Of a stretch of DNA of 64,000 nt, positions 1,593 through 39,648 are shown in pieces. Each line of letters begins with the position of its first letter. Position 1 is the first letter of the stretch. The notes beneath the pieces are model-generated. The model had not been told where the DNA came from. It made no database searches and saw only the letters and a list, made by a program, of their open reading frames with translations. The translations under genes and the position numbers were made by a program. The stretch is from Amoebophrya sp. A120 (Eukaryota > Protista > Dinoflagellata): NCBI GenBank assembly GCA_905178155.1, contig CAJINV010000011.1, forward strand, positions 196,154 through 260,153, given 5' to 3'.

Positions 1593-2855
1593 CTTCAGCG
1601 AGAAACTCTTGGCGTACTGCTCCGCAGTCGTTATCGCGTTCGCGAAGAGCACATTCGAGCCAGACGACGATGCGCCGGATGCGCTTCTATGCATTGCAAA
1701 AGCATCGCTTCTGTACTAGTACAACAAGTTGCATACCCAATTTTTCTTCTAAACCCAGAGTCGAGGCATCTTCTTATGCTAGATCGCTTGGAAGGTTAGA
1801 TTTGTCATGCATGGTTGATGATAAGATTACAACGAGTTGTACAGGAGCATCACTTTTGCAGTGGATAGCTGCCGGCGGCACTGGATGTTGCACTGGATGA
1901 TGAGCTACCAGACGCCGACGCGGAACTAGAAGTCCCGGACGACGCTGCTGCTCCGGCCTGCAGGATGACACTTGCGCTCGACCCGGCCTGGTGCCCAGGG
2001 CCGGTAGATAGAGACGACTTGTTGATTACTGCAGCTGCGGTTCCGCCACCACTTGTGCTCATGTCCTTGGAGTTTTTTGGGGAAGAGCTGTGACTTATCC
2101 TACGTAAAAACATCCCCACCCCAGAGTCAAGATGGGAAATCCGCTAGACAAATCAACCAGCTTTGGTTGTTTCGCATGACAAATTTGGCCCCGTAGTGTA
2201 ATCCTGTTTCGCTAGCTGCAGCAGCATCACAGATCTAGCATATCATGCTGATTTGCGCATCACAAACTCCAAAACAGGACAGGGAAATGCTTCGCATGGG
2301 GCTCCGAATGAGAAACATTTTTGGCATGCAGATTCGCATAACAACTCTGGGGTGGGGATGTAGTTTTTACTCAGAATATGGCTGCGGGCAGAAAGATACC
2401 CGTTTCCACCGGATCCGGTGACCGGCAATTTCCCGTTCTTCGCCCCCGCTGTCGTAGTTACTGTCCGCAGTTTGGGAGCTTTTCGATCAGAGGTATCCTG
2501 TGCAAACGTATCGTACTCGTAGTAATTGCATTTATGCATTACAAATCTTTCTCGCAAGGTAAATCAGCATTACAAATTCAATTTATAATGCTGGGCTAAT
2601 TTGTAATGCAATCTATACTAGTACGATGCTTTTGCAGTTCATAAGAGGATGGATTCTCGCCTAGCGGCGATCCGCGCTTGAGGTTATAATTTGCGGACGT
2701 GGTCGTTTTCTTGTTGTTCGCCCCCGGAGGACTCCTGCTGGCAGGTGGATGTTGCAGTTGCAGTGATGTTGACTTGTCTTGTCCGTCCTTGCCACCTGGT
2801 AGTTGTTCATAATAAGTTGTTCGTCGTAGTGGTGGTGGTGGTGTTAATGCACGAA
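1593..2855 (-). CDS. Low-complexity coding exons, either a separate gene or an alternative 3' part of the fusion gene; continues leftward
   Basis: One frame stays open across three introners (exons ~2855-2644, 2488-2379, 2090-1868, 1682-1593) and ends at a canonical donor AAG|GTATAT. No domain recognised and the 5' connection is unresolved. Confidence 0.5.
1688..1867. mobile_element. Introner, family B
   Basis: TIR tatgcattgcaaaag...cttttgcagtggata; DR gcttc/gctgc. Confidence 0.8.
2096..2378. mobile_element. Introner, family A
   Basis: TIR tatcctacgtaaaaacatccccaccccagag; DR tgact/tggct; homologous to 9663-9945 over its full length. Confidence 0.88.
2494..2643. mobile_element. Introner, family B
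   Basis: TIR tatcctgtgcaaacgtatcgtact; exact DR agagg. Confidence 0.88.
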
Positions 2856-5800
2856 TTCATCGTAGTATCGACGTAGTTTTACGCACAGGAGCAGAGAACC
2901 GATGTACATGACGAAGAGGGGACCAAAGACAAAAAGCGTGCGAGTATTTGATGTAGTACCAGCAGCGGCAGCGGATTTTTTCGCGGATGTCTTCTGCATT
3001 TTCTGGTGATCATGATCTTCCTGATCTTGATGTTCCTGGTCGACGCACAGTACGTACCGGATTCGCTGTGGCGCGTATGCATTTCAATCATGATGCCCGG
3101 TCCTGGCACAATAAGTTCCACCTCTTAGGCGGTTTATAAATATTCTCGGCTTGTGGTACTATTGCCTGCAGCTGCATTATATTCTGTCATGCATCTTCAC
3201 AAGTTGCAACCCTCCTCCCCAGAACCAGACATTTTTGCACTCGATACCACATCCTTGGTGCTGATCTCGCTATCCCGCAAGGTGTCCAGGCACCGTATGG
3301 GATTTCCAACAGTTACATTCTCCACTGTTGCATGGTTTGTCATGCAGAATTTTCATCAGCATCTCGCAGCATCAAGCTGCCTCGCATGACAATTTCTCGA
3401 CGCCCTAGGTAGCAATAGAATCCGCGCCAAACTTGTAATGCAGGAGGTGCAAAAATCTTCTCGTTCTCCCTTTCGCTTTCACTTTTGCCATTCTTGCATT
3501 GCAAATTCACGTAACAGCTCAGAATGTAACGTTTGAACACTCCATATACCGTTCGAAATATGTGTCATCGGGGTAGCCGTGGTATTGCTGCCCACCCGAA
3601 GGTATGCATTGCAAACATACTTCTATCACACTCGTGTACATTCAATTTGGAGAAGTGATTTGGAGATAGTCATTTGTCATGCACACGTCGATTGCGACAA
3701 TGTTCATGTTGTACACGAGAGTTCTTTTGCGATACTTTTGCAGAGCATACACGGCGAAGTTTTTAAATGCACGTTGAATGTTGGGCCCAGAGTGCCCGTC
3801 GTCATCCGCGTCCCGAAGCCGAACATCACGCGCCGCTTGAAGGCGACCTTGAAAAGCTCCAACAGCATGATGCCCCAGTAGTTGTAGGGTAAGTAGCACC
3901 GCTCCGTCCGTGCCGCAAAGCTGGCGTTGGTGGTCGGGTGCCGACCTTGTTTGAACGAGAACAACACCAGAATGGAGCCGCCGAAGCCGGTCTCCCCCAC
4001 GAGACTCTGGCTTGTCCACTGCCAGGACATGGTGCCGTGTCGCGGTTGCTGCCCGACCACGATTCCCACGGGGGCCTTGCAGACGGGACACGTCCGTTTC
4101 TCCTCGAACCACTTGAACAGACAGGCCTTATGGAACACGTGGCCGCAGTATGACAGTGCACAACTCCCCCTCCCCCTCATTTGTATAGCATGAACAGCAA
4201 CACAAGCGCTGGCAAAGATGCAGCTTTTGCATGACAAATTCCGAGAGGCTTGTAGTGCTGTTTTGGATTCCGGAATCTGTCATGCAAACAGTACTAACAG
4301 GCATAGGGTGGATTTCGAAATTCGCATGACAAATGAGGGGGAGGGGGGGTTGTGCACTGTCATACGCAGGTTTTCAGCTTGAACGCCGGTTCGGGGTCGT
4401 CCATGTGGCAGACCAGGCAGTTTTGTCCGTCTGGGAGGCTGGGCAAGTCCTCGCCGATCTCCGCGGCAACGAGCTGACCTTCGCCCTCCAGCTCGCCGGG
4501 AATCGTGATGCGGCCATGATCGGTGTAAACCTTGGTTGCGTGGAAGGGATCAGAGGTTTTACCAGTAGTAGAAGCACTTGCTGTTGCACCACCACCGCTG
4601 GAGAAGAAAGAATTTCCGGCGCTCGAACTGCTGCTACTTCCAGGGCCGATGTTGAACGTGTTTGCAGCTGCGCTGGAGGTCGTGCCGCCGAAGATCGACG
4701 CGAGAAAGCCGCCAGTTGTACCTGTCGCATTGCCCACCGTAGAACCCTTTTGCACGCAGATCAGCGGCCTGGCCTTGAATTCCTCGAGGCGGTGAAATTG
4801 CCCAAAAGCCGCCCCCGACGAGTCCGTTTCGGCCCAGATTGTTCCGTCGCCCATCGCCTGCAACGTCGCCCCCTCTCGCAGGACCTTCCGCACCGTGGTG
4901 CCGCCGCGCTCAAACTTATCCAGGTTCTCAATCAGGTAGAAGACACCGTTGGAGAACTTCGTCCCGCTTTTCCCGGCGTGGCTCGACAGCGCTCCTGCTC
5001 CGGAGCTAGTACTTCCGAACAAAGTAGTAGACCAGGTTGATGGCCCTGCGCTGGAACTGCTGGAACTGAAGGTGGAAGTGGAGCTACTATTTGCGGCGCT
5101 TGTACCACCTCCCCCAGTGCCCCGGTGGACTCCTGACGTGATCCGCGAAACCAAGGGGTCGGTTGGCGAAACGGGGGTGCCCGTCTCGACCAATAGGCTT
5201 GACGGTCGCGGGTTCACCGCCAGGCCGATCAGCACCAGGTAGTCGCACCAGTCCGGCCGGGCGTCGGGCAGCATACTCGGCTGGAGGAAAACATCCCAGA
5301 TGTCGGCACCATTCTGCACCGCCGATTGCGACCAGACGGCGCCCTTCGGGGCAAACGCAACGCGGTGCGCGGCGGATTGCAAGCGGATCTTCGGTGGCTA
5401 TGAATTGCAGAAGTATCGCACTCTACGAGTGACTCGTAGTAATTGCTTTATGCATCACAAATCTCGTCTGTCTTATTCTTAAGTTGTTGAATCCGCATTA
5501 CAAAGTTCATTCCTCTTTCTGGGTAATTTTGTATTCGCAATTTCTATATAGTACGAAATACTCTTGCACGGGATAGTGGCGTCGCCGGGACAGCTGAAGT
5601 CCGGGCAGTGGTGGTATTCATCGTCAGCGCCTTCGCTGCCGCAGCATTCACGAGCTTCTCCAGCTCCTCCGTCTTGACCTGAAACTCGGCGGGAAAAATC
5701 TTCTCGGCTTTCTTGCTCTTGCTTTTGCCCCCACGAGTGTAGGTCAAAAGCCGTGCCTTCGCGTGTTCGGTTCCGGCAGCGTCCTTGTGCGCCAGGAGCC

Positions 5801-8800
5801 CCAGGATGCCTTGGTCGGCGAAGGTTTCGTACGTGGGAAGGGCCACGTTCCCCTGCCGCTCGTGGTCCAGGAGCTTCTTATCAAATGTAAAAATGTCTGG
5901 GTCTGGAAATTTGTGATGCTGTGTGGCATATCATGAGGAGGCCACAACTGCTGGCTCAGCATGACAAGTTTCTGAGCTTCTAGGTGTTGCCTATTCTGCA
6001 TGACAAACTACGTTTCTGCATGACAGAAAAGTGGGGCTCTTTNNNNNNNNNNNNNNNNNNNNNNNNNNNNNNNNNNNNNNNNNNNNNNNNNNNNNNNNNN
6101 NNNNNNNNNNNNNNNNNNNNNNNNNNNNNNNNNNNNNNNNNNNNNNNNNNNNNNNNNNNNNNNNNNNNNNNNNNNNNNNNNNNNNNNNNNNNNNNNNNNN
6201 NNNNNNNNNNNNNNNNNNNNNNNNNNNNNNNNNNNNNNNNNNNNNNNNNNNNNNNNNNNNNNNNNNNNNNNNNNNNNNNNNNNNNNNNNNNNNNNNNNNN
6301 NNNNNNNNNNNNNNNNNTCTGCATCACAGAAAAACGGAGCTCTTGGGTAACGTGCATGACAGATTTTAGAGTCATGCCAGACAAGCATGACAAACATGAA
6401 TTCTTCCAGACCCAGACATTTTTACAGTTGATAAACAGGTATGCATTGCAAAAGAATGATCGTACTAGTAGGAAATATGATCGCATGGCAAGTTTTGTTC
6501 TCAGCATGAGAAATGGAATTTGTAATGCGGGTTTAGGTTTACCTGAAGTAGACTGGGATTTGTAATGCATGCCAACGATTATTTACTACGAGTGTACGAC
6601 GAGTACGATACTTTTGCTGTGCATAACAGGGCGGACGCCTCCTCGTTCACCTCGCAGGACGCGAATATGTGAAACGGCGCGATGACGTATCCAAGAAAAA
6701 AACACCATCGCAATCACATTTAGGAGGTTTTGCATCAGAAATTTGTCTCGCATGACAAATTTTTCTTGTATTGCAAAAACACAAAGGCAAATCGCCCATA
6801 ACTCTTGACTGTGATGCTGATGCATTTTTGCGCATGACAAAACTTTTTGTATTGCAAAAATGTGCAAAAGTGGTTGTGATTGTGTTTTTTTCTTGAATAT
6901 GACGCAGTTGTCGCGGTTCAACCGCAGGAGATTCTGCTGCTGCCAGTCCGCCGCGCCAGCTGCAACAACGCCTGCAATCCTCGATGGGGCGTTCTTGGCG
7001 TGGTCCGGCGTGACCGCCATCCAGATGTCGCGTCCACGGTGCACGTTTACTCCTCCAGACAACCCACCATTTTTCCGCTCGAAGCGGTGCGTACCGCCCC
7101 GGACGATGGTCTCGACGTCTAGTTCCACGACAAAGTCCGCATAACCGCCTCCCCGAGCACTACCGTAGTTGTTGGCGAGAACCTGGTCTTTGGTGACAAA
7201 GGCGGGGTTTATACTGAGCAAAAGTTGTATCATACTCGTACTATGTTTTTGCAATCATGCGTTACAAATCCAAATCCCTTTTACAAGAGCAAGGTGAACA
7301 ATCTGAATGCACAGATTTCATTTCTTGGAGAAAAAAATGCTGACCACAAAATTTGTCATGCGGTAGTCTCTACGAGTTCAATAATTTCGCACAACAGGAT
7401 AGGGTGTACAGCGGTGCAGTAGATCCCGGGCCCATGCTATAACAGTGCACAACCCCCCCTCTCCCTCATTTGTCATGCGAATTCCCAAATCTAGTCTCCT
7501 CGCTCTCTTTCCTGGCACTTTTTGCATGACAAGTTCTGGTAGCCCAACTAGCACTACACTCCACTGTAAATCTGTCTTGCAGAGCCGGCGTTCTTGGTGA
7601 TGCTTGTATTGCCGTTCATGCTATACAAGTGAGGGGGGGGAGGTTGTGCACTGTCATACGTACGCGCCACTGACGGAGGGGAGGAGTACCAAGGACTCCT
7701 TGATTTTTTTCGCTTTGCTATGCAAGAAAAAAACTGTGTTAGTGTAAGTTTGTGATGCAGAAAATGTAAAACCGTGACACTTGTCATGCTAGCTAGCCAT
7801 GCGGCGCTATTTCGTGCGTGATCTCGTCACGTACTGGGTGCGCATGACAAACTTTCTCCGTCATGCGAGACAGATTTGTCATGCTGTGACCACAAGACCG
7901 CTACACTAACACAGTTTTTTTCTTGGATAGGTGCTGTGTGTGGTGTAGTGGTAGAGCTTGCGCGGACGGCCCGAGCTGCCGTCATCCGGGTTCATTGCCG
8001 AGATCTGCTGGGCCGTCGGCGCCGTGGCCGGGCGGGCTGTGCTGGCATTCGCAGAAGTACTCGCTGCTTCATGAAAGTCCACAACTCCCCCTCGTCCTAC
8101 TCATTTCTCATAACAATAAATTCCGGAAGTTCAAACAACACCAAAATAGGCCTACCGAATTGTGTCATGCATAGGCTCCACCTGCGCTGGCGTTTGTCTT
8201 GCTGTTCATGCAGCGATACAAATAAGGAGAGCGAGGTCGGGTTGTGCACCCTCATATCCTTGCATGCCCGTGGAATTGGCAGTGTCGGTCGCGTCCATCG
8301 CGTCGTCAAAGCTGATATTTTATCAAAAGGAAAAGCATCGCTTTCGTATGAATGCAAGTCTTGCATATACAAACCTCGTTCTCAAGGCAAATCAGCATGA
8401 CTCATTTTATTTCTTTTGCTGAGGAAAAAATTGAAATTTGTGATGCAATGGCTTCTAGTACGATACTTTATTTGCAATTCATATATTTTCTTTCGGGTCG
8501 GACAGCACTGAGCGCATCGTTTGCAGCACCGACTTATCAAATGTAAAAATGTCTGGGTCTGGAAGAGTGCACGTTTGTCATGCTTGTCTGGCATGACTCC
8601 CAATTCTGTCATGCATGTTACCCAAGAGCGCCATGTTTCTGTCTTGCAGAAACACAGTTTGTCATGCAGAATAGGCAACACCTACAAGCTCAGACATTTG
8701 TCATGCTGGGCCAGCACTTGTGGCCTCCTCACGATACGCCGCTCAGCATTACAAGTTTCCAGACCCAGACATTTTTGCACTTGATACGACTCCAGGTTGT

Positions 8801-10033
8801 GGGTCGGCGACCACATGTCCGAGATCAGCCGTTTATCGAAAGGAAAAATCCCCCCTCCACAAGTCAAAACGGAACTTCTGCTGCTGGATTTGTGTACACG
8901 ACAAATGCGCTTTGTATTGCAGGAAGACACTGCAGCGGCCAGATCCCCAGCCTAGGTAGGGGCGTTTGGGTCTAGTTGTTCAGCATTGCAAACGGCTGCT
9001 CCTCAGGCCCAGCAGCATGGCAAATCGCTTCCATAATGGGACGGAAGAGTCTGCCCTTGCAAGACAAATGTGATTGGTGGCCACAAATCAGCAACACAAA
9101 TTTTCGGAAACATACCTTTTCAAAATGGGGAGGGGAAGTTTTTCCTTTCAATAACGCTGGCAGATTTTGCCGTCCGTGTCGACGTTGGGGTGGAAAATCG
9201 GATCCGAGAACCGCGCTTCTATGGCCTTCTCAACTGTTACACTCTAAACTGTTACATGATGAGTTTGTGATGCAAGAATGGCAAGAGTGAAAGTGGGAAG
9301 GTTGCGCCTTTTGCATTACAGGTTTGGAGCACAGCATAATGCTTATGCTATCTAGCGCGTCGAGAACTTGTCATGCGGAGGAGGAAAAGTGCTAGTGTTT
9401 TTGCATGACAAATCATGTAACACCAGTTGAGAATGTAACGTTTGAGAACCCCATAGCCTCCAACGGCTCCATCGGGTAGGTTCGGGGGACAAGAAGCTCG
9501 ACCTCGAACACGCCGCACTCCCATTCCGTGGAGAGGGGACCCTGGATGTAAGCGGTAACCCGGTACTGGCCGTCTGCCTCGGCTGCAGAAGAAGACCCCG
9601 GCTTTGGCAGCAGCGCAAACTGCTCCGGGTCGACCCACACGCCGTCCGCGACGAGCGTGCAGTATCCTATGTAAAAACGTTCCCACCCCATAGTCAAGAT
9701 GGGGAATCGGCCCGACAAATCCACAAGTTTTGGCTGCTTCGCATGACAGATTTCAACTATTGGTGCAGTGCTGTGTAGTGAGCTAGGTCAACAGCATCAC
9801 AGATCTAGGATGTCACGCAGATTGGAGCATGACAAACTCCAGAACACGACTAGAAAATGCTTCTCATGGAGCTCCGCATGGGAAACATTTCCAGCATGCA
9901 GACTTGCATTGCAACTATGGGTTGGGGACGCTTTTAAATACGATATGCACGGGGTCTGCTTCAGTTTGTCGCCTTCCTTCATCAGCCGCCGGTGGGCGTA
10001 GCCCACGCCACCCGGGTTTATCTTTGACGCCAT
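2844..10033 (-). CDS. Multi-exon E2(UBC) + HYD1-type ADP-ribosyltransferase + Deltex RING-H2/DTC fusion protein, ~1056 aa
   Basis: Exons (upstream DR copy kept): 10033-9946, 9657-9456, 9214-9154, 8828-8787, 8529-8484, 8315-8257, 8064-7930, 7713-7659, 7432-7402, 7204-6900, 6682-6626, 6434, [~46 nt in N gap], 5873-5576, 5393-4365, 4143-3750, 3597-3547, 3290-3247, 3070-2844. Every visible junction keeps the frame. Restored motifs: UBC (GPLSTEWECGVF...YPMEP...IFHPNVDTDGKICQRLISDMWSP); ART (LYHYT...GAYGPGIYCT...NNYG...RDIW); RING-H2 (CLVC...CGHVFHKAC...CPVC); DTC (GQQP.GTM...CYLP...AF.RR.MF.FG...HLKTS..GG...HGYPD). The last junction and the C-terminus are uncertain. Confidence 0.8.
3076..3246. mobile_element. 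Degenerate introner, family C
   Basis: Right end clearly family C (ccagacatttttgcactcgata); left end decayed; DR matches only 2/5. Confidence 0.55.
3296..3546. mobile_element. Introner, family D
   Basis: TIR tatgggatttccaacagttacattct; DR caccg/taccg; interrupts the DTC C-terminus. Confidence 0.88.
3603..3749. mobile_element. Introner, family B
   Basis: tatgcattgcaaa...tttgcagagcata; DR gaagg/cacgg; removal restores HLKTSPxGG..HGYPD. Confidence 0.85.
4149..4364. mobile_element. Introner, family E
   Basis: ~35-bp TIR tatgacagtgcacaac.ccccctccccctcatttgt; exact DR cgcag; splits the RING at C|GH. Confidence 0.93.
5399..5575. mobile_element. Introner, family B
   Basis: tatgaattgcagaagtatcg...atactcttgcacgggata; exact DR gtggc. 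Confidence 0.9.
5879..6042. mobile_element. Introner, family C, left part (runs into N gap)
   Basis: Colinear with the first 164 nt of the reverse complement of 8535-8786. Confidence 0.85.
6318..6433. mobile_element. Introner, family C, right part of a second copy (emerges from N gap)
   Basis: Matches the last 116 nt of the reverse complement of 8535-8786. The region shared with the 5879 copy differs in sequence, so these are two copies. Confidence 0.8.
6440..6625. mobile_element. Introner, family B
   Basis: tatgcattgcaaaag...cttttgctgtgcata; exact DR acagg. Confidence 0.9.
6688..6899. mobile_element. Introner, family G
   Basis: tatccaagaaaaaaacac...gtgttttttcttgaata; exact DR tgacg. Confidence 0.9.
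7210..7401. mobile_element. Introner, family B (diverged)
   Basis: tatactgagc...acaacaggata; DR gggtt/gggtg; in frame within the ART domain. Confidence 0.82.
7438..7658. mobile_element. Introner, family E
   Basis: TIR tataacagtgcacaacc; DR catgc/cgtac; removal restores GAYGPGIYCT; opposite orientation to 4149-4364. Confidence 0.9.
7719..7929. mobile_element. Introner, family G
   Basis: TIR tatgcaagaaaaaaactgtgttagtgta; DR tttgc/ggtgc. Confidence 0.87.
8070..8256. mobile_element. Introner, family E (diverged)
   Basis: catgaaagtccacaact...ggttgtgcaccctcata; DR tgctt/tcctt. Confidence 0.82.
8321..8483. mobile_element. Introner, family B
   Basis: tatcaaaagg...tttgcaattcata; exact DR tattt. 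Confidence 0.87.
8535..8786. mobile_element. Introner, family C
   Basis: 30-bp TIR tatcaa.tg.aaaaatgtctgggtctggaa; exact DR cgact. Confidence 0.93.
8834..9153. mobile_element. Introner, family F
   Basis: TIR tatcgaaaggaaaaatccccc; DR ccgtt/acgct; homologous to 60998-61319 over its full length; inserted two codons after the E2 catalytic Cys. Confidence 0.92.
9220..9455. mobile_element. Introner, family D
   Basis: tatggccttctcaactgttacactct...agaatgtaacgtttgagaaccccata; DR gcttc/gcctc. Confidence 0.9.
9663..9945. mobile_element. Introner, family A
   Basis: TIR tatcctatgtaaaaacgttcccaccccatagt; DR tgcag/tgcac. Confidence 0.9.
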
Positions 10034-10846
10034 TTTTTTTTGCAGTGTCTTTCAGCGCAAAAATACGAATACAACCTGCCGTGGCCGGAAATTTTTCTAA
10101 CTCATCATTAAACCACCTCAAGATGAAAAAAAACTACAGTTTTTTCTTTCCATCCACATGTTGTTGCGCGCAGTAGTATCATCTATTTTAAACCCGCGGA
10201 AACATAGACCATCTACGGTGCTAGACGTTAGAGAAAGACCGCTGTAAAAACGTTCGATACTGATTTTCGGAGATGATGCAGGTGCGCCTTTTTTGCTACA
10301 GTGCAACATCGATGACGTTGTCAGTCCTCATTGCAACGAGCCCCGAATGAAAAGTAAATGGCAACGGCGAGGATCCGACAGGAAAGGACAGTTGAAAATG
10401 ATCAATCTGAGGGTGGTCCGCATTTATCGCGATTGTCGTCATGGATTGCTATTCTTGGAAATCTCTTTTGCTTGTATCCCTCATCGAGCCTAGCCAATAG
10501 GTGCAGCCCGCGATCCAAATGAACGCAATACTCAATACGACGGAGGTCCTGGCACTGTGCCCGAAAGAGACAAACAGATGCTAAAGCTTTCTCTCACCAA
10601 TTCGAACTGGTGCCGCGCCGACGTGCTCTCATCGGGCGCAGGCGCTCGACTTCACGCGAATGTAGAACATCTTGACAGCCAGCATTTTACGAAAGGAAAC
10701 GAATGCAGACCAACTGTCGGTCGACTTCTAGTCTGTCCGATCAGACTGACACCACGGCCGCGCGGCGGCTTTGTCCTGCTCCTGCTGTGGCCAGCCACCA
10801 ACCTGCAGCGGCTGCGGTCGTCGAAATCCTCCGCCCAGGGCTGCTA

Positions 10847-12145
10847 GAAAATGCGGCCCCTTGGAGTTTTCCGGGGCGGAGATGTCTGCCCCTGCTATTC
10901 GTTTTGGAAATCACGCACACCGCAGAGGAAGCTAGCCAGAGGAGGAAACACACAACCAGACGCCAATGGGCCAGATCCGAGGGACGTCCAGGACGGGCAA
11001 ACAAGGCACCGGGCGCCCGCGCATCATCTTGGCCGCGGCTTCTGCCTTCGAAATGCCTCGCCCGGAGCCAGCTACGAGAAAACCCGGCCGGCCCCTTGGG
11101 TTTTGGTATTGCGGTGGTGCCGCCCGGTTTTGCGTTTTGGAAATCACACAAAAGCCGAGCCCCCGGAAACCAACCAGAGGACCACCCAACCCGACACCAA
11201 CGAGCCAGACGGACCCGAGGAAGGGAGGTCAGGACGGGCCAGCAAGGAAGGCACCGGGCGCCATTTTTTATCTTGGCCACGCGCCTTCTGCCTGCAAAAT
11301 GCCCCGCCTGGAGCTGCGAGAAAATTCGACCCCTTGGGTTTTGGTATTGCGCTGGTGGCGCCGGTTTTGCGTTTTGGGAACCACACAAAAGCCGAACCCC
11401 CGGAAACCAGCCAGAGGACCACCCAACCCGACACCAGCGAGCCAGACCCGAGGAAGACACGTCAGGACGGGCCAGCAAGAAAGGCACCGGGCGCCCATTA
11501 TCTTGGCCGCGCCTTCTGCCTTTAAAATGCCCCGCCTGGAGCTGCGAGAAAATTCGGCCCCTTGGGTTTTGGTATTGCGGTGGTGGCGCCGGTTTTGCGT
11601 TTTGGAAATCACACAAAAGCCGAGCCCCCGGAAACCAGCCAGAGGACCACCCAACCCGAAACCAACGAGCCAGACGCGAGGAAGGGAGGTCAGGACGGGC
11701 CAGCAAGGAAGGCACCGGGCGCCCACTATCTTGGCCGCGCCTTCTGCCTTCAAAATGCCCCGCCTGGGGCTGCGAGAAAATTCGGCCCCTTGATTTTTTC
11801 CGGCTGGTGGCGCCACCGGTTTGGCGTTTTGGAAATCACACAAAAGCGGAGCCCCCGGAAGGCAGCCGGAGGACCGCCAAGCCGGACGCCAATGAGCCAG
11901 GGAGACCCGAAGGGAGGCAGGGCGCGCGGGCAAGCAAGACAGCGGGCGCCCATCTTCTTGGCCGTGGCCTCTCCCTTCTGCCTCCCACCTGCCTCGCCTG
12001 GAGAGCTGCGAGAAAATGCGGCCCCTTGGTTTTTTCTGGATGGTGGTGACACCGGTTTTGCGTTTTGGAAATCACACAAAAGCGGAGCCCTCGGAAGCCA
12101 GCCGAAGGACCGCCCAGCCGGACGCCAACGAGCCAGGGAGACCCG
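10847..12145. repeat. Tandem satellite, ~230-bp unit, at least 5.5 copies
   Basis: gttttgg(a/g)aa.cac marker at ~10901, 11134, 11371, 11599, 11826, 12062; runs into N gap 12146-12245. Confidence 0.92.
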
Positions 12146-12245
12146 NNNNNNNNNNNNNNNNNNNNNNNNNNNNNNNNNNNNNNNNNNNNNNNNNNNNNNN
12201 NNNNNNNNNNNNNNNNNNNNNNNNNNNNNNNNNNNNNNNNNNNNN

Positions 12246-12790
12246 AGGGCCGCACCGGGACCCTAAGTAGAAACGCAGAGTCCCCGAAGGGCCCAAAAGC
12301 ATCATACAGTGCTGTTTCAAATTGCTAAGCCTGCGCCCGAGGCCGCTCCGGGACTCCGACCAGAAACGGAGACGCCGCGGAGGGCCCAAAAGCATCATGC
12401 CGTGCTGTTTCAAATTGCTAAGCCTGCGCCCGAGGCCGCACCGGGACTCTGAGTAGAAACGCAGAGTCCGCGGAGGGCCCAAAAGAGCCATGCTGTTATC
12501 AAATTTTGCAAAGCCCGCTCCAAGGGCCGCTCCGGAACTCCGAGTAGAAACGGAGAAGCCGATGCCAAGGGGGGCTGAAAAACATCATTATGCCATGCTG
12601 TCTCAAAGTGCAAATCCTGTGCCCCGAGCCGCTCTGTGGCTCCGACCAGAAACAGAGAATCCGAGCGGACCCCAAAAGCATCATACCATGCTGCGCCAGA
12701 GTGCAAAGCCTGTGCCCCGGGCCGCTCCGGGACTGCGATTAGAGACGAAAGCCCAACGAAGCGGGGGCTGCTGGCTCCGGGCCGAATCTA
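12246..12790. repeat. Tandem repeat, ~93-bp unit, decaying rightward
   Basis: agggcccaaaag at 12288, 12381, 12474, then degenerate copies. Confidence 0.88.
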
Positions 12791-23575: not shown

Positions 23576-26500
23576 CTATCTCTTTCGACCGGTTGTTTTG
23601 TTTTCGACTATGAGCAGCTGCTCCCTGATGCCCAGACAGTCCGGATCGTTCGATAGCGATATCGTGACCGGCATATTGCTCCTTTCCAGAGGCAGCTGCG
23701 CTGTCTCACTTCGTTGCCTTTCCGAATTGCGACCACCCTCCGCAGGAGCAAGAACCCGGTCTTCACGTGGGTAGTACATCATCAGGTTCTGCGCGACTTC
23801 CCGAAGCTCTCTTCTCAGCAAGCGACACCCTTCCCCGGTTGGAAGACAAGCGGAGCCCGTCACGGGGTGCCGCCCCGGGGCCAGGAAGACCAGTTGGCGG
23901 TACAGACGCCGGAACTTTTTGATATTCTGCAGACCATTCTTGCCGAAATAGTCTTCCTCTGCGAAGGAAAATTTTTGACCGCCGTCGGAGGTCTGCAACC
24001 CGACGACCGTGAAATCGTATTCATCTTCTACACCAGCTGCAGGCGGTGGTCGGATAAAAAGTACCACATCCTCGCCGAAGTGCCCACTCGCAAGCAGCCA
24101 CAACCAACTTCGGCCTGCTGGCAGGAGTGTCGCGCCGAGCACTTTGATTTTCGAGCCCTCGTCGAGCACGTCAGCACCAACTGCAATGTGCGAGTACTCG
24201 TCCACGGGGGGCGGCGGGGCACGGCCGAGAAGGCGTTGCGTGAGGCGGTCAGAGGAATCCGGTCTGGTAGATGGTACAAACGTCCGAAGGCGAGACGCCC
24301 AAGGAAACACCGCGTCGCGCTGCGCAGGAGCATTTCGTCCTGCTGGTTTTGCACCGGCGAGGTCATCCGTTCTCGAGGGGAGGATTTGGACGGACATACC
24401 GGAATCAGTAGAGATGAGATTTTCACTTTCACGACAACAGATCACAGCCGCAGCTGGCGGCACTGAGGGCGATGTCGTCATTCTTTCACCTCGAAAGCCC
24501 CTGACCGCATTGTTGAACCAGGTCCAGCGGGGAATGAGTGGGGATATGGAGCCCCCGCTGAACGCATATAGCCTGTCTTGGTCGTCCCTCAACACGTTGC
24601 CGCACGCAGAAGAGTGGGAAAGAAATTTCGGTAGCCGAGCCAGTGTCTCGGCGATCGGTGGAAAGAAATTTGGGCAGCGTACAAGCCCTCCTGTAGGCCC
24701 AGGAGCCACGCCGCTGCTGTCACGGCCGGCGCGTAAAAAGCACTGCAAGTTTGAGGGGCCATAGCCGAGATCCGAGTAGTTCCCAAAAGAAACATAGTCT
24801 TCGAGGATTTGTAAATCCTGACCTGAAGATGATGTAGTTGTTCCCAATTCGCGTTTCAAGGCTTTTACAAATTTTTCGTTGCTGTCACGAGACGAATCCG
24901 TTAGCGGGCTGCGGAAAATAGTTGTCGGGGCTCGAGCGTAGTTGGATAAAAAGTTCAAAGCAAATTCTCTTGCCGCAAAATCCACATCGACTCGTCCATA
25001 GACGACGGCATTGGAAAGAGAAGCCAATCCGACTCCGAGCAAAAATTTGCGAGCTAGCACGGCAGAACCTTCAACACGACCTCCTTCGGGTGGTCTACTT
25101 CCGGAAGCAAATTTGTTGATCTGGGGATACGACACAGGATGGCGTCCTGTACCGAGACCGCGTCCACAACCCGGCCCGGCCGACGCCCAATCGATGAGCC
25201 TCGAGGCATTTCCCGCGGTTCGCGACAAGGTGCGGCGCCACGCTTCATAGCGTTTCTTGTCGCACTGCACGGAGTTTAGCTGCGAATCAAGCCGATACAG
25301 TTCGAAGGTTGTGAGCGAATCGCTAAAGCTGCCACCGTCTAAGTCAAAACGGTACTCCAGCGCCTTGTGGAACGCTCGGAGACCTTTCATCGTCGGGACT
25401 AAATTACCGGATTTGCTTGAGCTGGTGCCGCCCAAGCGAGGTGGAAGACCTTGATGTAGCGGATCGTCCTCCTGTTCGATGCAAGCCGCCAGAACCACCG
25501 CTTCGCGAAAGCGGTCGTGCAGGTCAGGATCCATCGCCCATCCCAGGAAAACGAGGGAAGCGGCCGCGAGAGGCGCTCCGGGGAGGTGCATCGCTACGAG
25601 ACCAAGAAGTGTCAGCTCGCTGTTGTCATCCAGGAAGAGTTGGCGGCGCAGTTGCAGCACCGCCTCCGGAACCAGTCCTGGATTGGGTGGGGCCGGCAGC
25701 TGCGCGAGGTGATGGTCGAACGCGCTCGCTGATGCTGTCGTGGAGGTTTCATTCGCATTCCCAGTTGTAGTCTCTTCACCTACTTCTACCGGCCGAAACT
25801 TCCAACACGAGTCCGCTGCTGCCCAGTGCGTGCAGACCCGTTTAGTTGATGTCGACCCGCGATGAACAACGTCGATAAAGCCGGGATAGCACCAAGAATC
25901 TTGTTCGCCGGAGCTGCTGATGCTGCCCGAGTCGGAAGTAGATTTGTCGTCCGCCAAGATTATTTTTCTCGCCAGGCTCCTGCGTGCGTGCTCCACTTCG
26001 AGCAAAACGCGTCGCAAGTCGAGGTCGGCCAGTTCGCCGCAATCTCCAGTCAAACGAAGGTGGTCGTACAGCATTTTCGGAAAAAGGCGCACACAAGTTC
26101 CCAGTTGGACGCGGCCGGCTCGCCCTTTCCGCTGGTCCATGGCCGAGGCCGTAGCCCACCGCAACTGCGACCGCTCCGTCCCGAGTCGCAAGTCGAAACG
26201 CCGGTGGAGTTGTAAGCCCAGATCCACCACGGCCAGCAGCTGTGGCAAGGTGTCGCCGGTTTCGCAGATGTTCGTTGCAAGCAGCAGTTGCACGGTTCCG
26301 GGCGGGACCGGACGGTATATCCTGTGAAAAAACGTCCCCACCCGAAAATATTTGTCATGCTAAACAGAAGTGCAAGAGCAAGTGCGGTGCACTTTGCCGT
26401 ACACCCTGCAAACGGCCAAAGATGGCTGTGACGCAGGCAAGGTAGGTCAGGCGGAAGCCGAAGTTCCAGCACCATATACATATTTTTCATGCAAATCTGT

Positions 26501-29500
26501 ATGTCCAGCTTCTCTCTTATACTTTTATCCGCAGCCCTGTAAGAACCATTTCCGAACCTTAGTTAGTCTGATAATTAGTCACACTAAATCGACCGACACC
26601 ACAAACGTGCCTCGCAAGTTCCCCTTCCGCAGATGGTTGGGCCTCCAAAGCACGGAGTCAGACGGACCACGCTAATGAGCATCGTCGTCTTCACCCTCGG
26701 GCACTTTTGCTATACTTAGCACCGTACTCGCCAACATACGTTTATAGCTCGCCAGCTTTGCCACACTTATTAATTTGCCGACGTGCGCTTATAGCTCGCC
26801 AGCTTTGCCACACTTATTTGCCAACGCGCGTTTATAGCTCGCCAGCTTTGCCATTGCCACACTTACTTATTTGTCAACATGCGTTTATAGCTCGCCAGCA
26901 TTGCCAAATCTATGCGCCAACACGCGTTTATAGCTCGCCAGCTTTGCCTCACTTATTTCTTGCCAACATGCGTGTATAGCTGGCCAGCATTGCCAAAGGA
27001 AATTTATCTGCGTGTGCCACAATGCATTTATAGTTTGCCAACTTTTTCTTCACAATAGCGCCAACATGCGTTTAGAGCTCGCCAGCTGCCAGCAGCTACC
27101 CTCCTGTTTTGTAAGCGATTCTTCTGTGCACGTTTTTTGGGGGAATGATTTGACCGTCGTGGGGCTTTGGAATTGTGCAGCACAGAAAACGGGATAGTTA
27201 GTTGTTTCTTGAATCTCCAAAATTGTGCCTCTTTGTTATGATGGGAATGAGATCAGTGGAGACGCTTTGACTCAGGATACGGTAGCGTGCATGGTTTGCC
27301 TCTTCTGCAAGGTCGCGGTGGCACAGGGTGTGCTGAATGTTCAGATCTGCAAAACAGGATGACCCATCATTTGTTTTTCCGGATAGAAAGAAAGACGAAC
27401 TCTTGCGAAGCAACTGCTCGCACCGCTGCAACATGCCCATGGTCGGCAAAAAGATCAGGATCTTGCCGCCTTCTTCGCGGCATATTGACAGGTATTTTTC
27501 GACTAGTGATTCTAAAACTGGCACAAGCAAGTGCAGAAAATAAACCTGTAGACGCTGTATTAACCGCTCCGAAGATGCGAATGGTGGAATGGCGGGCATT
27601 TTTTCGTCCTCCGCTGGGTCGATATGAGGATTGTTCTGAGAGGTGTTGGCACGACATGATAGCCTACTCACGCGTTTTGCCAAATCTGCTAATGCACCGA
27701 CGGAAGGGCATTTCTCCAGCGCATTGTCGCGGTGTAGATCATGATCTGGCGGCAAATTAGTAGACGATACCCCTTCCGCTTCCTCCAGGTCGGCAAGGTC
27801 AGTACTTTCGGCGGCAGCAGAGCCCGTCTCATCCGCATCCTCCACCCGCACAGGAGCCGCGCCGTCTGCACTGGCGGCTTCTGACTGAGTAATAAAGGCT
27901 TGAAGGCAACTCCACACGACATCGGCGACGGTACTTACAGCCTTCTTCGTCTTTATTTTCGTTTCCCGGGCGAGGGAGGTCTGCGGCAGGAGCGACAACA
28001 GGTCTTCCAGGTGCAGCGCGTCGATTCGAAAAGGATGCGACCCAGCAACCCGCACTACCGGACTGCTGGTCGCGGACGATGCTTTTTCCCGACTGGAAGA
28101 CGTTGACGAGACCGTGGTCTGTCGTTTTTTCTTCGACTGCATCTCAAAATCGAGCACCTCCTCAGGTTTATTCGTTTTTGCACAGGATCGAAACAAGTCT
28201 TCTTCGTCGCTGGTCGTCAAAACATACCCGAGTGGCGCGAAATAGCGCTTTACACCCCGCACAGCTTCCAGCGTCGCGGACATCAGGACTAGTCGCGTGT
28301 GGCACAGCGAGGGGTCGCTCAGCAGGGCCCGTAGCAGGAAGCACAAAATGTCCAGGTCAAACGACCGCTCGTGGATCTCATCCAGCATGATGTGGCTGTA
28401 TTCGCGGATAAGATCCGGATTTCGAAGCAGTTTCTGCTTCAGCGTGCCCACCGTGTAAAAAACGATAGGACTTGTCCCGCCCATGTCCTGGTCATCTTGA
28501 GAAATTTGATACGTCGCGACCGGGTGGTGTTGCGTTTGATTTGTTCCTGTTGTAGTTCCTGCAAGAAACCTCGTATGTTTGTTTCTCTGGAAGTGGTTTT
28601 TACCGCTACCACACGTAACCCGGTAGTTCCATTCGACTCCGCAAACGGTGTTGATCCGTCTGGCGCACTCGCGGGCGGAGTCTCTCCGCGGCTGCGTGAC
28701 TGCAATGCGACATGCCATTTTTCGCACTTGGAGTTGGTGGTGCGCCAAAATCAGCGGTGCCAGGGTGCTCTTTCCGCTCCCAGTGGCACCTTCGAGAAGC
28801 ACGACTCGGTTCTGGGTCAAGGCCTGCAGGAACGGCGAGCGCTCTTGTTGTGTGGTATAGTTTTTCTGGTGTGTTCCTCTCCTCGCAGCTCCACTTCTAT
28901 GATTTTCGTTGATTTGACTTTTCTGCACGAAAAAATGAACGTTGCTGCGCTGTTCGCTCATCTTCAGACGCGGGTCATTGCCACCTCCGTCAGCGTTCGC
29001 CATTCCAGTGTCGATTGCTTCGAGAAGCTCGCTCGGAACGTCGTCTGGCCCGTATCCGGAAATTTCGCGAGGAGCGACAAACCGCGTGTCGTGTAAATCC
29101 GCTCTGTTTGAAGTTAAAAACTCCTTCGCAGCCGGAAGTAGAACCTCGCTGGTACTATCAAACTCCGAGGAGTGGTCTGCGCGAACTCGCTTTCCCCGAC
29201 GAAGTCCCCCGGAACTGAGGTGCTTCGTCTGTGCAGCTCGTATAGCTGTGGAGGTTTCGTCGTCGCTAGAGGTGGATAGATCTGGCTCACTAGTGCTGCT
29301 GTAGTCTGGCGCAAAAATATTGTCTTTCGGTGTTATTCCAGCGCAAAAGGCCTCGTTGCTACACAGAATCGCTGAGAAGCTTTTCTGGACGAATGCGCGA
29401 CTGGGCCGAAGCGACAACAAGCTTTTTGAAGGTCCTCGCACGCGATGCCTGGCCAGCATTGTATCTCTCCTGCTCTCGCTATCGGTTTCATGGTGCACCT

Positions 29501-32500
29501 GCCCCTCTGCTACATCACGGCAGCTGCGGTCATCAAAGACGGTCGTGCGGCTCCAGCGCGGCCGCTTGTCCAGAACCTCCTCGAGCAGCACTGAGGCCTG
29601 ATCCAGAATATGAATACCACCGCCTGCGTGGCTGCACGACGGCAGCTTCGGAGGACGCAGATGCTCCAGCTGCAGCATGGCAAATGCCTCCTCGGTGGGC
29701 GGAAGTAAGGCAACCTCGTAGACCAGATCCGTGCTGCGCAGCTGAGTGGTCCTCATAGGAGAAGTGGTCCTGGAACCCGAGGACCTTGCACTGTCGGTTT
29801 TACGACAGCAGGCTCGCATCAGATCTTGAAGGCAGGAGGCTTCGTCCTTCCCCGCCGGCGCTGCGGAAAAGGAAGATTGTCTTCGTGATCGGCAAAATTG
29901 TGTCATCCCGACAGCACGAAACTTCCGGACTCGATTCACCAAATGCAGCTGAGCGATGGTAAGCTCTCTTTCCAGCAGGATTGGCATCTGAGTCGCACCA
30001 TACCGGAGACCGATTACGCGCAGCGGAATGGCTTTTTCAGAAAAGGATGGCGCCTGTAGCGAATTATGAAGCGAGAGCGAGATGAGTATGAGTCTTATCT
30101 TTTTGGAGAAGAGGATGAAATCATGATGATGGCCTCCTTGTGAAGACATGTTTGCGACGATGAGGAAATCCTTGCGATGAATGTGTTCTACTCAACACAA
30201 CAAATGGATAGTCCACTACTTCGATGTAAGGTACCATTGCCGTTTGCACATGCACAAGAACGGTCACTCCGTACTGAAACACCGGTGTACTTGCCAGCTG
30301 CAGGAGGATCGCGAAGTTTTCGGAAGGCATCAAAGTCGCGTTTCGAAACAAAACCCGGTGTCGGTGTTCGTCCTGCACAATACTCCAGGGGACGCAATAC
30401 GCCTTTGGATTCGCGCGCACGACTTGTTGGTCCTGTTCGTCGACGAGTTCTTCGGCTTGGTCTTTCGTCATCGTCGAGTGAACTCGACAAGACCCGTTCC
30501 CGTCCTGCGGAGGTATGCCACATGAAGCCCGGTGGTCGAAGCGCAGATGATTGGTCCTGCTCTTGTCTCCAGTTGCGGCACGGGTTTTCTCTTCGAAAAG
30601 ACCGTCCTCGTGGACAAGAGGTGGTCGGTCACACAGCGCACTGTGAGTACCATTATTAAGTCGCTGTCTGTCGTCAGGGTCCTGTTGCGTACCGCAGAAG
30701 TCGGTGGAGCATTCGGTGGATGAATCCACTTCAGGAAAAAGCAAGTAGCGATGCATGATGCTGCTTATCGGACCTCCCGCTGCCTCTGCCACGAAAAACA
30801 AATTGGGTTGCTCAGCCCCGTTTCCTTTCTTTGCTTCAGTGCTCCACCGCGCCATGAAGCTCTGCGGCGTCCAAATCCACTCCACCTGGAGCGGATGCTG
30901 TATCTTAAGCCGAGCCTTCGGATTCATGCCCTCGTACTCCGGAATGAGAATCTCCAGTGCGTATTGTGTCGAGACTGAGGCGGCCCCTTCGCTGGTGCCA
31001 TCTGCTTGTAAAGCTCTTGCAGCTGCAAGAGCTGCAGCATACCCGTGTGACGGCGGCGCATGATTTTCCTCATACGTCGGACGTGCACGAGAAGCATTTG
31101 TTCCACTCATCTTCGGGACGACGTGAAGATAAAGAAAGTTCTGTGCAGCTGCTGTGTCGACAGTATTAATGCCTTCCTCGCATGATGTTTTCCCGGTCCT
31201 CCGATTTTTCCGTCGAATTATGTCGCCCGGCCCTTGTATGTCAGCGTATACACCCTGCACGCGATACCCTGAATCCGTGAAGAGCTGGGAGAGTGACTCA
31301 TTCTGCCGCATTGAGTCTTCGAAAAATAAACTTCTCCTCGCTGCATCCACTAAAGGAGAATGCTTTTGCTTCGACGACGAATGATCTGAGTGCGAAGACG
31401 ACCGTTGATAAAGCCATTTCACGGGCCATGCGTTCTGGCTTCCAGCAGTCCCACTTCCGAGCGGGATCTGCACCATGTCTTTCCAGCATGAAGTAATCGC
31501 GTTTATCTTCTCTCCAGGGCACCTACTTTCGATAATCTTTCGCATGCTCTCGTAACTTTCCTGTCCCGCTGGCTGGACGGTCGCCAGAGTTTGGCCCATC
31601 ATCATACGCTCAGGAAAAGCCGATATAAGCAGCGCAGCAAGGCTCTCCCGGTTGACTTGAAATTGAAACGCTTCATTGTCGTTACAGCGAAATGGTGTCG
31701 ACGCTCTGGGTGAGGGCATACGCCATCTTAAAACTCCTTCTTCGGACGCGCAGCCAGAGCCAGCCTCGGGAAAGAGCGCGTGCCACAGTGCCGCTGCGGT
31801 GAGAGCTCCGCTTCTGCCGCTTTCGAGTACATTGAGGAAGTGCTGCAAGATTCTTTCTGCCTCGGGGGCAGCACATAGCTTATTGGTCAGCAAAGCCCGT
31901 GCCACGCGTCGCATTCGCTTGAAACACAACAGAAAAAGATCAGGTTTAAGATGTCGCCGAGAACTACTATTTTTCACTATTGAGGAGGATTCTCTTACAT
32001 CATGACGTGAGTCAAAGCTTCTATACGTTCCTTGAGTTGAAGTTGTTTGTGAAGAACCATCGAGAATGGCGCCTCCGAAATACCTCTGCAATAGATCGCC
32101 ATGAGTCCTCGCAGTGGTGGTGCCGCTGGGGGCAGACGGACGGTCCGCAGAAGACGCCACGGCAGCTTCGACGTTTTTTGTGCGGGCACGACCGTCCTTC
32201 CTGGGCTCGACAGCAGCCTGAGGCGGCAGAGACAGCGTCCAGAGGTGAAAGTCGTAAAGCGCATTGTGCAGGTCGCGAAGCAGTGGCTCAAAGTCACTCC
32301 ACGCGTTTGAATTCGATGTAGTTCTTGCAGAATCTTCTTTATCTTCCCCACAGTTGGTAGCGCTATCCGAGGACAACTCCGAGGACGACCGTGCTTTCAC
32401 CTCTGAATTTGCACTCGGAGAAGACCAGCCGTCCGGAAAGCAGTCTTCGACACTTGCAAGCAGCAACCCCATCCCGACGTGCTTGTGTAAAATGGCGACG

Positions 32501-38500: not shown

Positions 38501-39648
38501 CCAAGCTCTTGCAGCTCGCCGGACTGCGTAGCAGAAGAACTGAGACAAGCTCTCCCGGGAAATCGGGCTTGACGCGGCGGAATGTACTTGTATACTGGTC
38601 GCAAGACGCGGTGGTAGAGCACCGCGGGCTCCAGGGGAAAGTACGTCGCCTCCTCGGAAAGGGGTTGAATGTCGTTTTCATCGAGATATCGCTGCTCGAA
38701 GTCGGTGTCCTTCCAAGCGAACAGCTTTTTATTTGTTGCGAGATTCAGGTTCTGCAGAAACTTCAGGAGCTGACTGTAAGCAATCCGAAAATTTTGTCGC
38801 TGCGAGGCTGGTTCACGAAGCGTCACGGATGACATGACTGCTGCAGGTGACTGAACCGCTGCGTACCGCTGGTTTGTTTGCTCAATTGCTCTCGCGACGA
38901 GATACATTGCCAATTCGTCGTCCTCAGAAATTATTTTCGCAAGCCGCGGCCACGCCTCCAACAGGCCCCTCCCGTGTCCTGTTTCGCACCCGGACAGACT
39001 CAGACGCTGATCGCGCAGCCCGAACCAGCACCGGAAGTCAACCGAAGTCAAGAGAGACGCTGCAAAGTAGAAATGCCTCTCTGTTTCTTGCTCCATGTCA
39101 CAACACATGGAATCCGCGGACGTGTCAAAAAACTGGTCCAGGATCCCCGGCTCCAAGCGCTCCAGCAAGCCCACACCATACTCAATCACAGAGTACGGGA
39201 GAACCCATTGACCAAGTTCATCGAAGGATAAAATACCGAAAAAGAGCGAACGGAGACGTACTACTTGAACTTGTTTTTCTTCTCGGCTGTCGTGGTCCCG
39301 CGTGGCGGAGAACAGTTCTCTGCTGGCAGCAAGTGCGCTGTCGCACCATTTGCGCCGCTCGGTCAAACTCCCTGCAACTCCATGTCTCTCCCCTGCGAGG
39401 AAGGTTGGCTGGCAGGAGAGATCGTCTAATGTGAGCACCGATGTCCAAAAAAACAAAAAGTCGTCCCCTCTGTCGCCAAGCGGCCCGCTATTCTCACTGC
39501 TGACGGACGGTCGCGGGGACTCCGTTGGCGTTGCTGCAGCACTCTCCGAGCGCAGCAAATGCTTCTGCACAGTACCTTCCTCCATCTGCCGCTCCGCGTG
39601 GGCTGCTTTGGCCGCTGGCGCTCCACCGCTGAGGTTGGGCTCGCTCAT
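23576..39648 (-). CDS. Giant tandem DExH (RHA family, Spindle-E/TDRD9-like) RNA helicase with N-terminal 3'-5' exonuclease-like domain, ~4974 aa
   Basis: Exons 39648-30235, 30053-27280, 26312-23576 (14925 nt, in frame). Module 1: GTTGCGKTT, DEVH, SAT, ATNIAETSLTIP, QRRGRTGR. Module 2: GATGSGKST, DEIH, SAT, ATNICET, QRKGRAGR. The first join uses a predicted GT-AG intron, the second a 962-bp introner with an exact DR. Confidence 0.75.
26318..27279. mobile_element. Large introner (962 bp) with family A ends and an internal minisatellite
   Basis: tatcctgtgaaaaaacgtccccac / gtggagacgctttgactcaggata; exact DR cggta; removal gives HARYRPVPPGTVQLLLATNICET. Confidence 0.88.
26725..27095. repeat. Minisatellite (~42-54-bp unit, ~8 copies) inside the large introner
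   Basis: tttatagctcgccagc(t/a)ttgcc repeated. Confidence 0.88.
30054..30234 (-). other. Predicted canonical GT-AG intron joining the two helicase ORFs
   Basis: Donor ATG|GTACCT (or GAA|GTAGTG at 30219, also phase 0); pyrimidine-rich tract and acceptor CTACAG|GCG. Confidence 0.65.

Follow-up and report, generated by a model that had tools for sequence, protein, structure and literature searches.

The window analysed here is a stretch of 64,000 nucleotides from Amoebophrya sp. A120 (GenBank assembly GCA_905178155.1, contig CAJINV010000011.1, positions 196,154 to 260,153), and its minus strand carries a gene that combines a ubiquitin-conjugating enzyme (E2), a HYD1-type ADP-ribosyltransferase (ART), and the RING-H2 finger and Deltex C-terminal domain (DTC) of a Deltex-type ubiquitin ligase (E3); A120's own database records match it at 100% identity. 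Spliced contigs show these modules to belong to one gene and one transcript, and the ART is predicted, from family alignment and the structural model of a relative, to be inserted between helices 2 and 3 of the E2, in its active-site loop. Judging by sequence, we give slightly better than even odds (about 0.52) to the protein being a single-chain ADP-ribose/ubiquitin writer, which would make an ADP-ribose mark and ubiquitylate it with its own E2, and it is likely that it acts inside the parasite's own cells. An earlier note on this DNA had recognised the three modules, and it overlooked the nesting of the ART, the true 3' end of the gene and the family to which the protein belongs.

The public annotation divides this gene at an assembly gap into two proteins, P0002 (405 aa, E2 and ART) and P0001 (881 aa, RING-DTC). 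At the gap the annotation of P0002 departs from the reading frame, and the Met annotated as the start of P0001 (5621) is internal to a longer frame, with 84 open codons upstream of it. Four sequencing runs bear on the junction, three of them taken as RNA by guess (two samples, one study) and one of unstated kind, the contigs of which retain the introners described below. In each of the three RNA-type runs a single contig (3186, 3172 and 4794 nt) spans exon 1 to the DTC exon with the introns gone, and distances along these contigs equal the exon sums exactly (429, 208, 87 and 209 nt). Between 6900 and 5873 they hold 122 nt, so that an exon of 64 nt, in frame and known by its length, falls in the gap; this value replaces the ~46 nt of the earlier note and is still frame-compatible. 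The single gene proposed in that note is borne out, as the contigs run through 6043-6317, with the 64-nt exon, instead of ending in or near it, and three relatives carry the same modules in one open reading frame (ORF). Furthermore, counting from the Cys of an S-C-x-x-N motif (here upstream of the gap), five relatives reach a downstream R-Q after 37 residues (one insert-bearing relative after 53, with no R-Q found in four), and the present protein does so after 37 with 64 nt and 31 with 46 nt. The gap region (6043..6317, minus strand) would accordingly comprise the gap-side ends of two introners together with an exon which, given this spacing and the nested model of the E2, most likely codes for the remainder of E2 helices 3-4, such that a division into two genes would cut a domain.

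The continuity of the frame becomes apparent once its introners are removed. Within 3076-9945 there are 18 of these (16 whole and two interrupted by the gap), each of which, read on the minus strand, is a TAT..ATA core bounded by terminal inverted repeats and framed by two copies of a 4-nt direct repeat, with one spacer base ahead of the second copy. Counted on 19 whole introners (16 of the 18 plus three farther left), 61 of 76 repeat letters match in this register, and shifting it in six ways leaves 15-27 of 76. Excision by this single rule leaves the sequence stop-free from the ATG at 10033 to 6434 (1082 nt) and from 5873 to a TAA at 2844, much as had been read before; when phase shifts are randomised, 88 of 3000 draws keep the upstream half free of stops, and 4 of 243 combinations do so for the downstream half. 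The exon sums match the contig coordinates for all 18, and the frame remains open over 21 introners in all. The features reported for A120 introner elements (TAT-starting inverted repeats, 4-nt direct repeats and removal from RNA) are all found here, and density alone differs, at ~5.8 per kb of coding sequence in this gene against 1.42 introns per kb genome-wide (PMC7789003). Together, the introners and the assembly gap concealed this protein in the public A120 annotation.

Exon 1 and the 5' untranslated region (9946..10169, minus strand) contain the ATG (10033-10031), E2 helix 1 and the start of P0002, and the RNA-type contigs begin here, at 10130-10169. The N-terminal part of the E2 follows (8484..9657, minus strand; exons 9657-9456, 9214-9154, 8828-8787 and 8529-8484). 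It matches UQ_con of Pfam (E 5e-24) and has the intact HPN motif (9192-9184; His105, Asn107) and catalytic cysteine (Cys115, 9162-9160) previously ascribed to it, the latter being retained in 12 of 13 family rows and replaced by Ser in a protein from Lacrimia. A second cysteine (Cys351, 6656-6654) is invariant in the 11 family rows that extend so far, and a gap-free two-residue extension of the alignment to the solved E2 5v0r places it on the register of the gateway Asp117, a position for which we take the UBCH5 loop numbering to apply. Both aspartates of UBCH5/Ubc13-type enzymes are replaced in this protein, Asp87 by Arg117 (Arg or Lys in 11 of 13 family rows) and the gateway Asp117, by register, by Cys.

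A linker (7930..8315, minus strand; exons 8315-8257 and 8064-7930) leads from E2 helix 2 into the ART and includes its His205 (7950-7948), and the ART core occupies 6900..7713 (minus strand; exons 7713-7659, 7432-7402 and 7204-6900). His205, Tyr234 (7421-7419) and Asp299 (7029-7027) form the H-Y-D triad on which the earlier HYD1 assignment was founded; the His and Tyr are present in 13 of 13 family rows and the Asp in 10 of the 11 in which it can be placed. The match to Tox-ART-HYD1 (PF15633; E 7e-5) scores 23.8 bits where the Pfam gathering score is 25, and many of the relatives recovered by our searches reach or near this cut-off; Pfam searches with the ART exon alone or the middle exons alone returned no match. 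Atlas groups this ART with HYD1 clusters (feature score 0.96, TM 0.61), and an ART fold is also recovered in the model of a relative described next, so that the fold on which the earlier assignment depended is indeed found. It was among polymorphic toxins that HYD1 ARTs were defined (PMC3482391), and one member, Tre23 of Photorhabdus, ADP-ribosylates 23S rRNA (PMC8661411).

The simple tandem of modules formerly envisaged gives way to a nested arrangement. In the family alignment the E2 runs up to helix 2, the ART comes next, and an S/T-C-x-x-N-x-x-A motif and two helices follow; in this protein the return into the E2 lies at 6626..6682 (minus strand), with the S-C-x-x-N motif, Cys351 and the start of E2 helix 3. 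The family profile matches 5v0r in two pieces that flank the ART, chain residues 20-136 on its N-terminal side and 141-165 on its C-terminal side; taken alone, the latter is weak (conditional E 4e-4). An AlphaFold model of the relative P0034 (first of the 18 aligned rows; pLDDT 77, pTM 0.58) shows a complete E2 fold with helices 3-4 after the ART insert, from which we infer the same for the A120 protein. In that model residues 24-328 superpose on whole E2s by VIA-align over 150 residues (2.0 A, Z 19.5), and residues 171-291 on the ART-fold protein Tpt1 over 102 residues (2.9 A, Z 9.6). AlphaFold applied to P0002 alone was uninformative (pLDDT 33.5), and Pfam searches with five 32-residue helix pieces gave no match. 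An E2 deprived of its last helices and with Ile at the gateway was considered and discarded after the family alignment, the 5v0r profile match and the P0034 model.

Past the gap, a middle region (4420..5873, minus strand; exons 5873-5576 and 5393-4365) consists of Ser/Gly-rich linkers and unassigned segments, and it has no significant match to the middles of relatives (best E 0.07). A WWE identity was dropped for it, the profile of six relatives scoring 3.4 bits where the best of 300 shuffles reached 4.7. The RING-H2 finger (4076..4419, minus strand; Cys 4419-4417 to Cys 4081-4079, interrupted by the introner at 4149-4364) and the DTC directly after it (3247..4075, minus strand; exons to 3750, 3597-3547 and 3290-3247) are matched in Pfam with E 7e-10 and E 2e-19, respectively, in agreement with the initial reading. 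All eight zinc ligands of the finger are kept, with Lys in the linchpin position. The best solved-structure match for RING-DTC is DTX2 (E 4e-20), relative to which His582 (3769-3767) and His594 (3581-3579) are retained, Trp578 is Phe, Arg535 is Glu and Glu608 is Thr (3283-3281), the last confirming a missing DTC glutamate already suspected. Glu608 is retained in three other three-part proteins (P0010, P0012 and P0030), and Thr or Ser takes its place also in P0007 and L012; the DTC of the A120 copy stands on a long branch of the DTC tree. The main chain of DTX2 Ser567 touches ADP-ribose (PMC7442474). Here that position is Arg, which we rejected as a hallmark of the three-part family, as L007, beyond that family, carries the same Arg.

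The architecture is not peculiar to this gene. Searched in full with HMMER, the ART returned 45 matches including itself; 11 of the 44 others have UQ_con, and three of these also have RING and DTC in a single ORF, namely an A120 paralog (P0010, CAD7925034.1, 1119 aa), a protein of A25 (1188 aa) and one of Lacrimia lanifica (P0012, 776 aa), a diplonemid (Discoba) whose record is a transcriptome assembly and could reflect contamination. The profile comparison proposed in the earlier note thus finds UQ_con, RING and DTC significant and the architecture recurrent. This gene is joined in the tree, at 100/97, by a fragment from AT5.2 that is 54% identical. Most of the remaining ART matches are HYD1 proteins standing alone or fragments, with mites and a fly among the sources. 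In the E2-ART tree the bearers of RING-DTC fall on four distinct branches, to either side of the deepest split, and this scatter fits an old three-part form; the DTC tree is compatible with one clade for the three-part proteins (p-AU 0.39, with L011 and L013 left out), and the ART-only tree is too weak for a claim of single origin. Four E2-ART proteins without RING-DTC (P0017, P0018, P0019 and P0022) end in UIM matches or UBA-like tails, and it follows that the E2-ART unit may operate without Deltex. Among the three-part proteins, P0010 carries at residues 545-676, ahead of its RING-DTC, a second, degenerate DTC without equivalents of the His/His/Glu, and P0012 has a 16-residue insert past HPN, with Ser at the E2 Cys and the second Cys retained.

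On the RING-DTC side, six proteins (P0003-P0008) and 13 loci make up a broad set of protist Deltex sequences that lack E2 and ART. All six proteins, one of them from Gymnodinium, have WWE matches; we did not encounter this WWE-Deltex set (L001-L012, P0003-P0008) in the literature searched. None of the 13 metagenome Deltex loci, which are on short contigs, shows likeness to P0002 at E < 0.1. Word-index protein searches with the middle exon or the ART exon returned A120's own records only; such searches are a weak test, in that from the RING-DTC side they missed the three-part relatives. A scan of viral contigs gave one weak E2-only match, the viral fold matches being plain E2s, and PADLOC over six proteins gave a single weak E1-E2 match, on P0034.

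Taken as a single-chain writer, the protein would operate as follows. The ubiquitin-activating enzyme (E1) of the cell would charge Cys115 with ubiquitin, and the H-Y-D ART would use NAD+ to place one ADP-ribose on a target, be it protein or RNA. The DTC would then capture the target-bound ADP-ribose in its Phe/His/His pocket while the RING holds the protein's own ubiquitin-charged E2, and ubiquitin would pass to the ribose 3' hydroxyl, not to lysine. The E2 loop that usually holds the lysine gateway Asp would hold the ART and a Cys instead, and the loss of that Asp favours a non-lysine acceptor; Asp117 is reported to be dispensable for ADP-ribose ubiquitylation (PMC7615817). RNA may be a substrate, by analogy with Tre23 and from a fold search confined to representatives, and Deltex ligases are known to ubiquitylate ADP-ribosylated RNA and DNA (PMC10810221). 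A role in defence or quality control is likely, again by analogy.

Several observations weigh against this proposal. In DTX2, His582 and Glu608 activate the ADP-ribose hydroxyl, and E608Q strongly weakens the enzyme (PMC7615817), as E733A weakens DTX3L (PMC11460948); the Thr in this position would make the A120 copy slower than its relatives, or a neighbouring Asp might be used. DTX2 Arg535, a contact to the diphosphate (PMC7442474), aligns with Glu here, and Asp87, required in UBCH5A for both reactions (PMC7615817), is Arg. The loss of Asp87 and, in this copy, of Glu608 therefore argues against full activity. To these must be added the Ser in place of the E2 catalytic Cys in the diplonemid member, and the want of RING-DTC in 8 of the 11 E2-ART matches, some of which are fragments. 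The nested model is that of P0034, at 33% identity, and not of the A120 protein itself. Last, the transcript evidence consists of assembled contigs from one study, and a contig alone is no proof of a single molecule; the 64-nt gap exon is known by length only.

A real, if minor, chance attaches to ADP-ribose being a recruiting tag, the ART marking a target, the DTC reading the mark, and RING and E2 ubiquitylating side chains of the protein (lysine or serine/threonine). Such recruitment of ADP-ribosylated proteins to ubiquitylation is known for DTX2 (PMC7442474), and in this copy the pocket residues (His582, His594 and the aromatic at Trp578) are retained and the catalytic Glu is gone; however, all 11 rows have Cys, by register, where the lysine gateway Asp would be, and the Glu persists in three other three-part proteins. 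It is doubtful that the single-chain writer should be extended to a new eukaryotic class of E2 with an ART-grafted loop, a second catalytic Cys and a Deltex on the same chain, which would form ubiquitin-ADP-ribose on RNA, serve alveolates and euglenozoans as a one-protein device for antiviral defence or translation arrest, and be switched between soluble and membrane forms by intron retention.

We attach a small probability to the nested E2-ART being the actual enzyme, with the ART modifying ubiquitin or the E2, or with Cys351 relaying ubiquitin from Cys115, and the Deltex part accessory. The insertion of the ART beside the active site would suit this, as would a second Cys in 11 of 11 rows, even where Ser replaces the canonical one (P0012), and the several members with UIM or UBA-like tails in lieu of RING-DTC. 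That Cys is placed by the two-residue alignment extension, not by residue geometry, however, and a conserved Cys may be structural; the dispersal of RING-DTC bearers over the tree also speaks against it. Similarly, it is unlikely that this copy is a partly degenerate paralog or a scaffold, with the Glu-bearing P0010 performing the chemistry. The Thr at Glu608, the long DTC branch and the existence of that second A120 gene are as expected for such a copy, but the gene is spliced and its frame open through 21 introners, every other catalytic residue is retained, the AT5.2 fragment groups with it, and Thr/Ser at the Glu608 position recurs in P0007 and L012.

That the protein is a secreted effector against the dinoflagellate host, one form of the parasite effector raised in the earlier note, appears very unlikely. 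Amoebophrya is an intracellular parasite and HYD1 ARTs were defined from toxins (PMC3482391), yet no hydrophobic segment stands at the N-terminus (over 19 residues, hydropathy in the N-terminal half peaks at 1.2), the same architecture is on record from a diplonemid, and the RING-DTC falls in the broad protist Deltex set that includes Gymnodinium. Two genes joined by scaffolding or read-through alone, as the annotation would have it, are barely credible: the gap is flanked by different copies of one introner family, a typical site of misjoins, and none of the DNA contigs listed bridges it, but all three RNA-type runs cross it spliced and in frame, open codons lie ahead of the annotated Met, the spacing to R-Q is that of relatives, and the split would sever the E2 fold.

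The nearest known systems share parts of this design. Animal Deltex E3s (DTX1-4, DTX3L) have the same RING-H2 followed by DTC, including His582, His594 and the Lys linchpin, and make ADP-ribose-ubiquitin with PARPs and UBCH5 (PMC7615817, PMC10810221, PMC11460948). In animals ART, E2 and E3 are three separate proteins, while here they form one chain, with a HYD1-type ART instead of a PARP, Thr for Glu608 in this copy and no WWE signal. The fungal PARP-Ubc/fPARP2 likewise joins ART and E2 in one protein, as a tandem of a PARP6-type ART and a C-terminal UBE2Q-type E2 that is described as fungus-only and, in those descriptions, without a Deltex being named (PMC13720257; bioRxiv 10.64898/2026.07.25.740670). 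By contrast, the E2 of the A120 protein is N-terminal and closest to the Rad6/Ubc13/Ubc4 types, its nested ART is of HYD1 type, with no match to the PARP family of Pfam, and RING-DTC lies behind the E2. With Tox-ART-HYD1 toxins such as Photorhabdus Tre23 it has the H-Y-D signature in common; it differs in being eukaryotic, in the insertion of the ART in an E2, and in the lack of an Rhs or secretion module or immunity gene, no such Pfam family being found in P0001, P0002 or 20 long ORFs of the window. The protist WWE-RING-DTC proteins, e.g. P0003 of Gymnodinium smaydae, are 40-49% identical over RING-DTC, but carry WWE in six of six cases and neither E2 nor ART, and would read ADP-ribose made elsewhere. 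Legionella SidE ligases also couple ADP-ribosylation and ubiquitin transfer on one chain, by ADP-ribosylating ubiquitin without need of E1 or E2. The present protein differs in possessing E2 and RING parts and in matching no phosphodiesterase.

An E2-nested HYD1 ART with Deltex was not described in the literature we searched (most subscription papers lay outside it), as the earlier note had supposed, the fungal tandem being the nearest relative in design. ADP-ribose-ubiquitin is a recently found hybrid mark, and the animal pairings of writer and ligase, and their substrates, are still being worked out. A conserved chain of ART, E2 and Deltex would argue independently, from evolution, for a coupling of the three steps, would extend this chemistry to protists with a toxin-type ART replacing PARP, and would offer a minimal system for assay and structure (the protein, E1, ubiquitin, ATP and NAD+). 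To ubiquitin enzymologists, an enzyme domain in the E2 active-site loop together with a family-wide loss of both active-site aspartates would be unexpected.

The gene does not end at the TAA (2846-2844) where it was previously thought to, as this stop sits within a canonical GT-AG intron of 164 nt (2796..2959, minus strand) that is spliced out in contig X4, which continues 1433 nt past 2644, and in the P0001 annotation. The spliced form enters a low-complexity extension (1593..2795, minus strand; exons 2795-2644, 2488-2379, 2090-1868 and 1682-1593, with a GT intron next), passing three further introners to 1593 and then running beyond the window start. Exons down to 1593 agree with P0001 at 224 of 228 residues (four masked); RNA contigs resolve them down to 2644. 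The final 131 residues are encoded left of the window, for a full spliced form of ~1,347 aa, whose tail has a weak C2-domain likeness (TM 0.57, below the tool's bar). Retention of the intron would give a form of 1062 aa with a terminal 19-residue segment of hydropathy 2.3, which 2 of 5000 intron shuffles reach in a post hoc test. In X1 and X2 this branch ends the main contig, and the intron is carried by a 221-nt contig of its own (2767-2987) at about half the depth of the main one (12.3 vs 24.1 and 10.8 vs 22.9), contig depth being a poor measure. A tail-anchored isoform produced by intron retention is thus a lead.

From 5' to 3', the TAT..ATA cores of the introners lie at 9663-9945, 9220-9455, 8834-9153, 8535-8786, 8321-8483, 8070-8256 and 7719-7929 (introners 1-7); at 7438-7658, 7210-7401, 6688-6899, 6440-6625, 6433 to the gap, the gap to 5879, and 5399-5575 (8-14); and at 4149-4364, 3603-3749, 3296-3546, 3076-3246, 2494-2643, 2096-2378 and 1688-1867 (15-21). 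At 6434, the introners at 6440-6625 and from 6433 to the gap nearly abut, and the one base beyond the direct repeat between them would be a micro-exon, which fits the contig arithmetic. A strict scan of the 64-kb window places 14 of its 21 matches within the 8.3 kb of this gene (1688-9945). Short repeats rich in GGTAGG/CCAACC surround another gap (445-1103) at 393-1440, within the inferred last intron, and just upstream of the gene, at 11003-12747, lie tandem arrays with a 228-nt unit (4.8 copies) and a 93-nt unit (5.3 copies). Elsewhere on the minus strand, helicase-like ORFs of 927, 997 and 3187 codons (23579-39684), with one DEAD and two Helicase_C matches, are possibly a single giant helicase gene, and are followed by a beta-galactosidase (GH35; 40552-43746), an exonuclease-endonuclease-phosphatase domain (49221-50588) and a pyridine nucleotide oxidoreductase (61133-62995).

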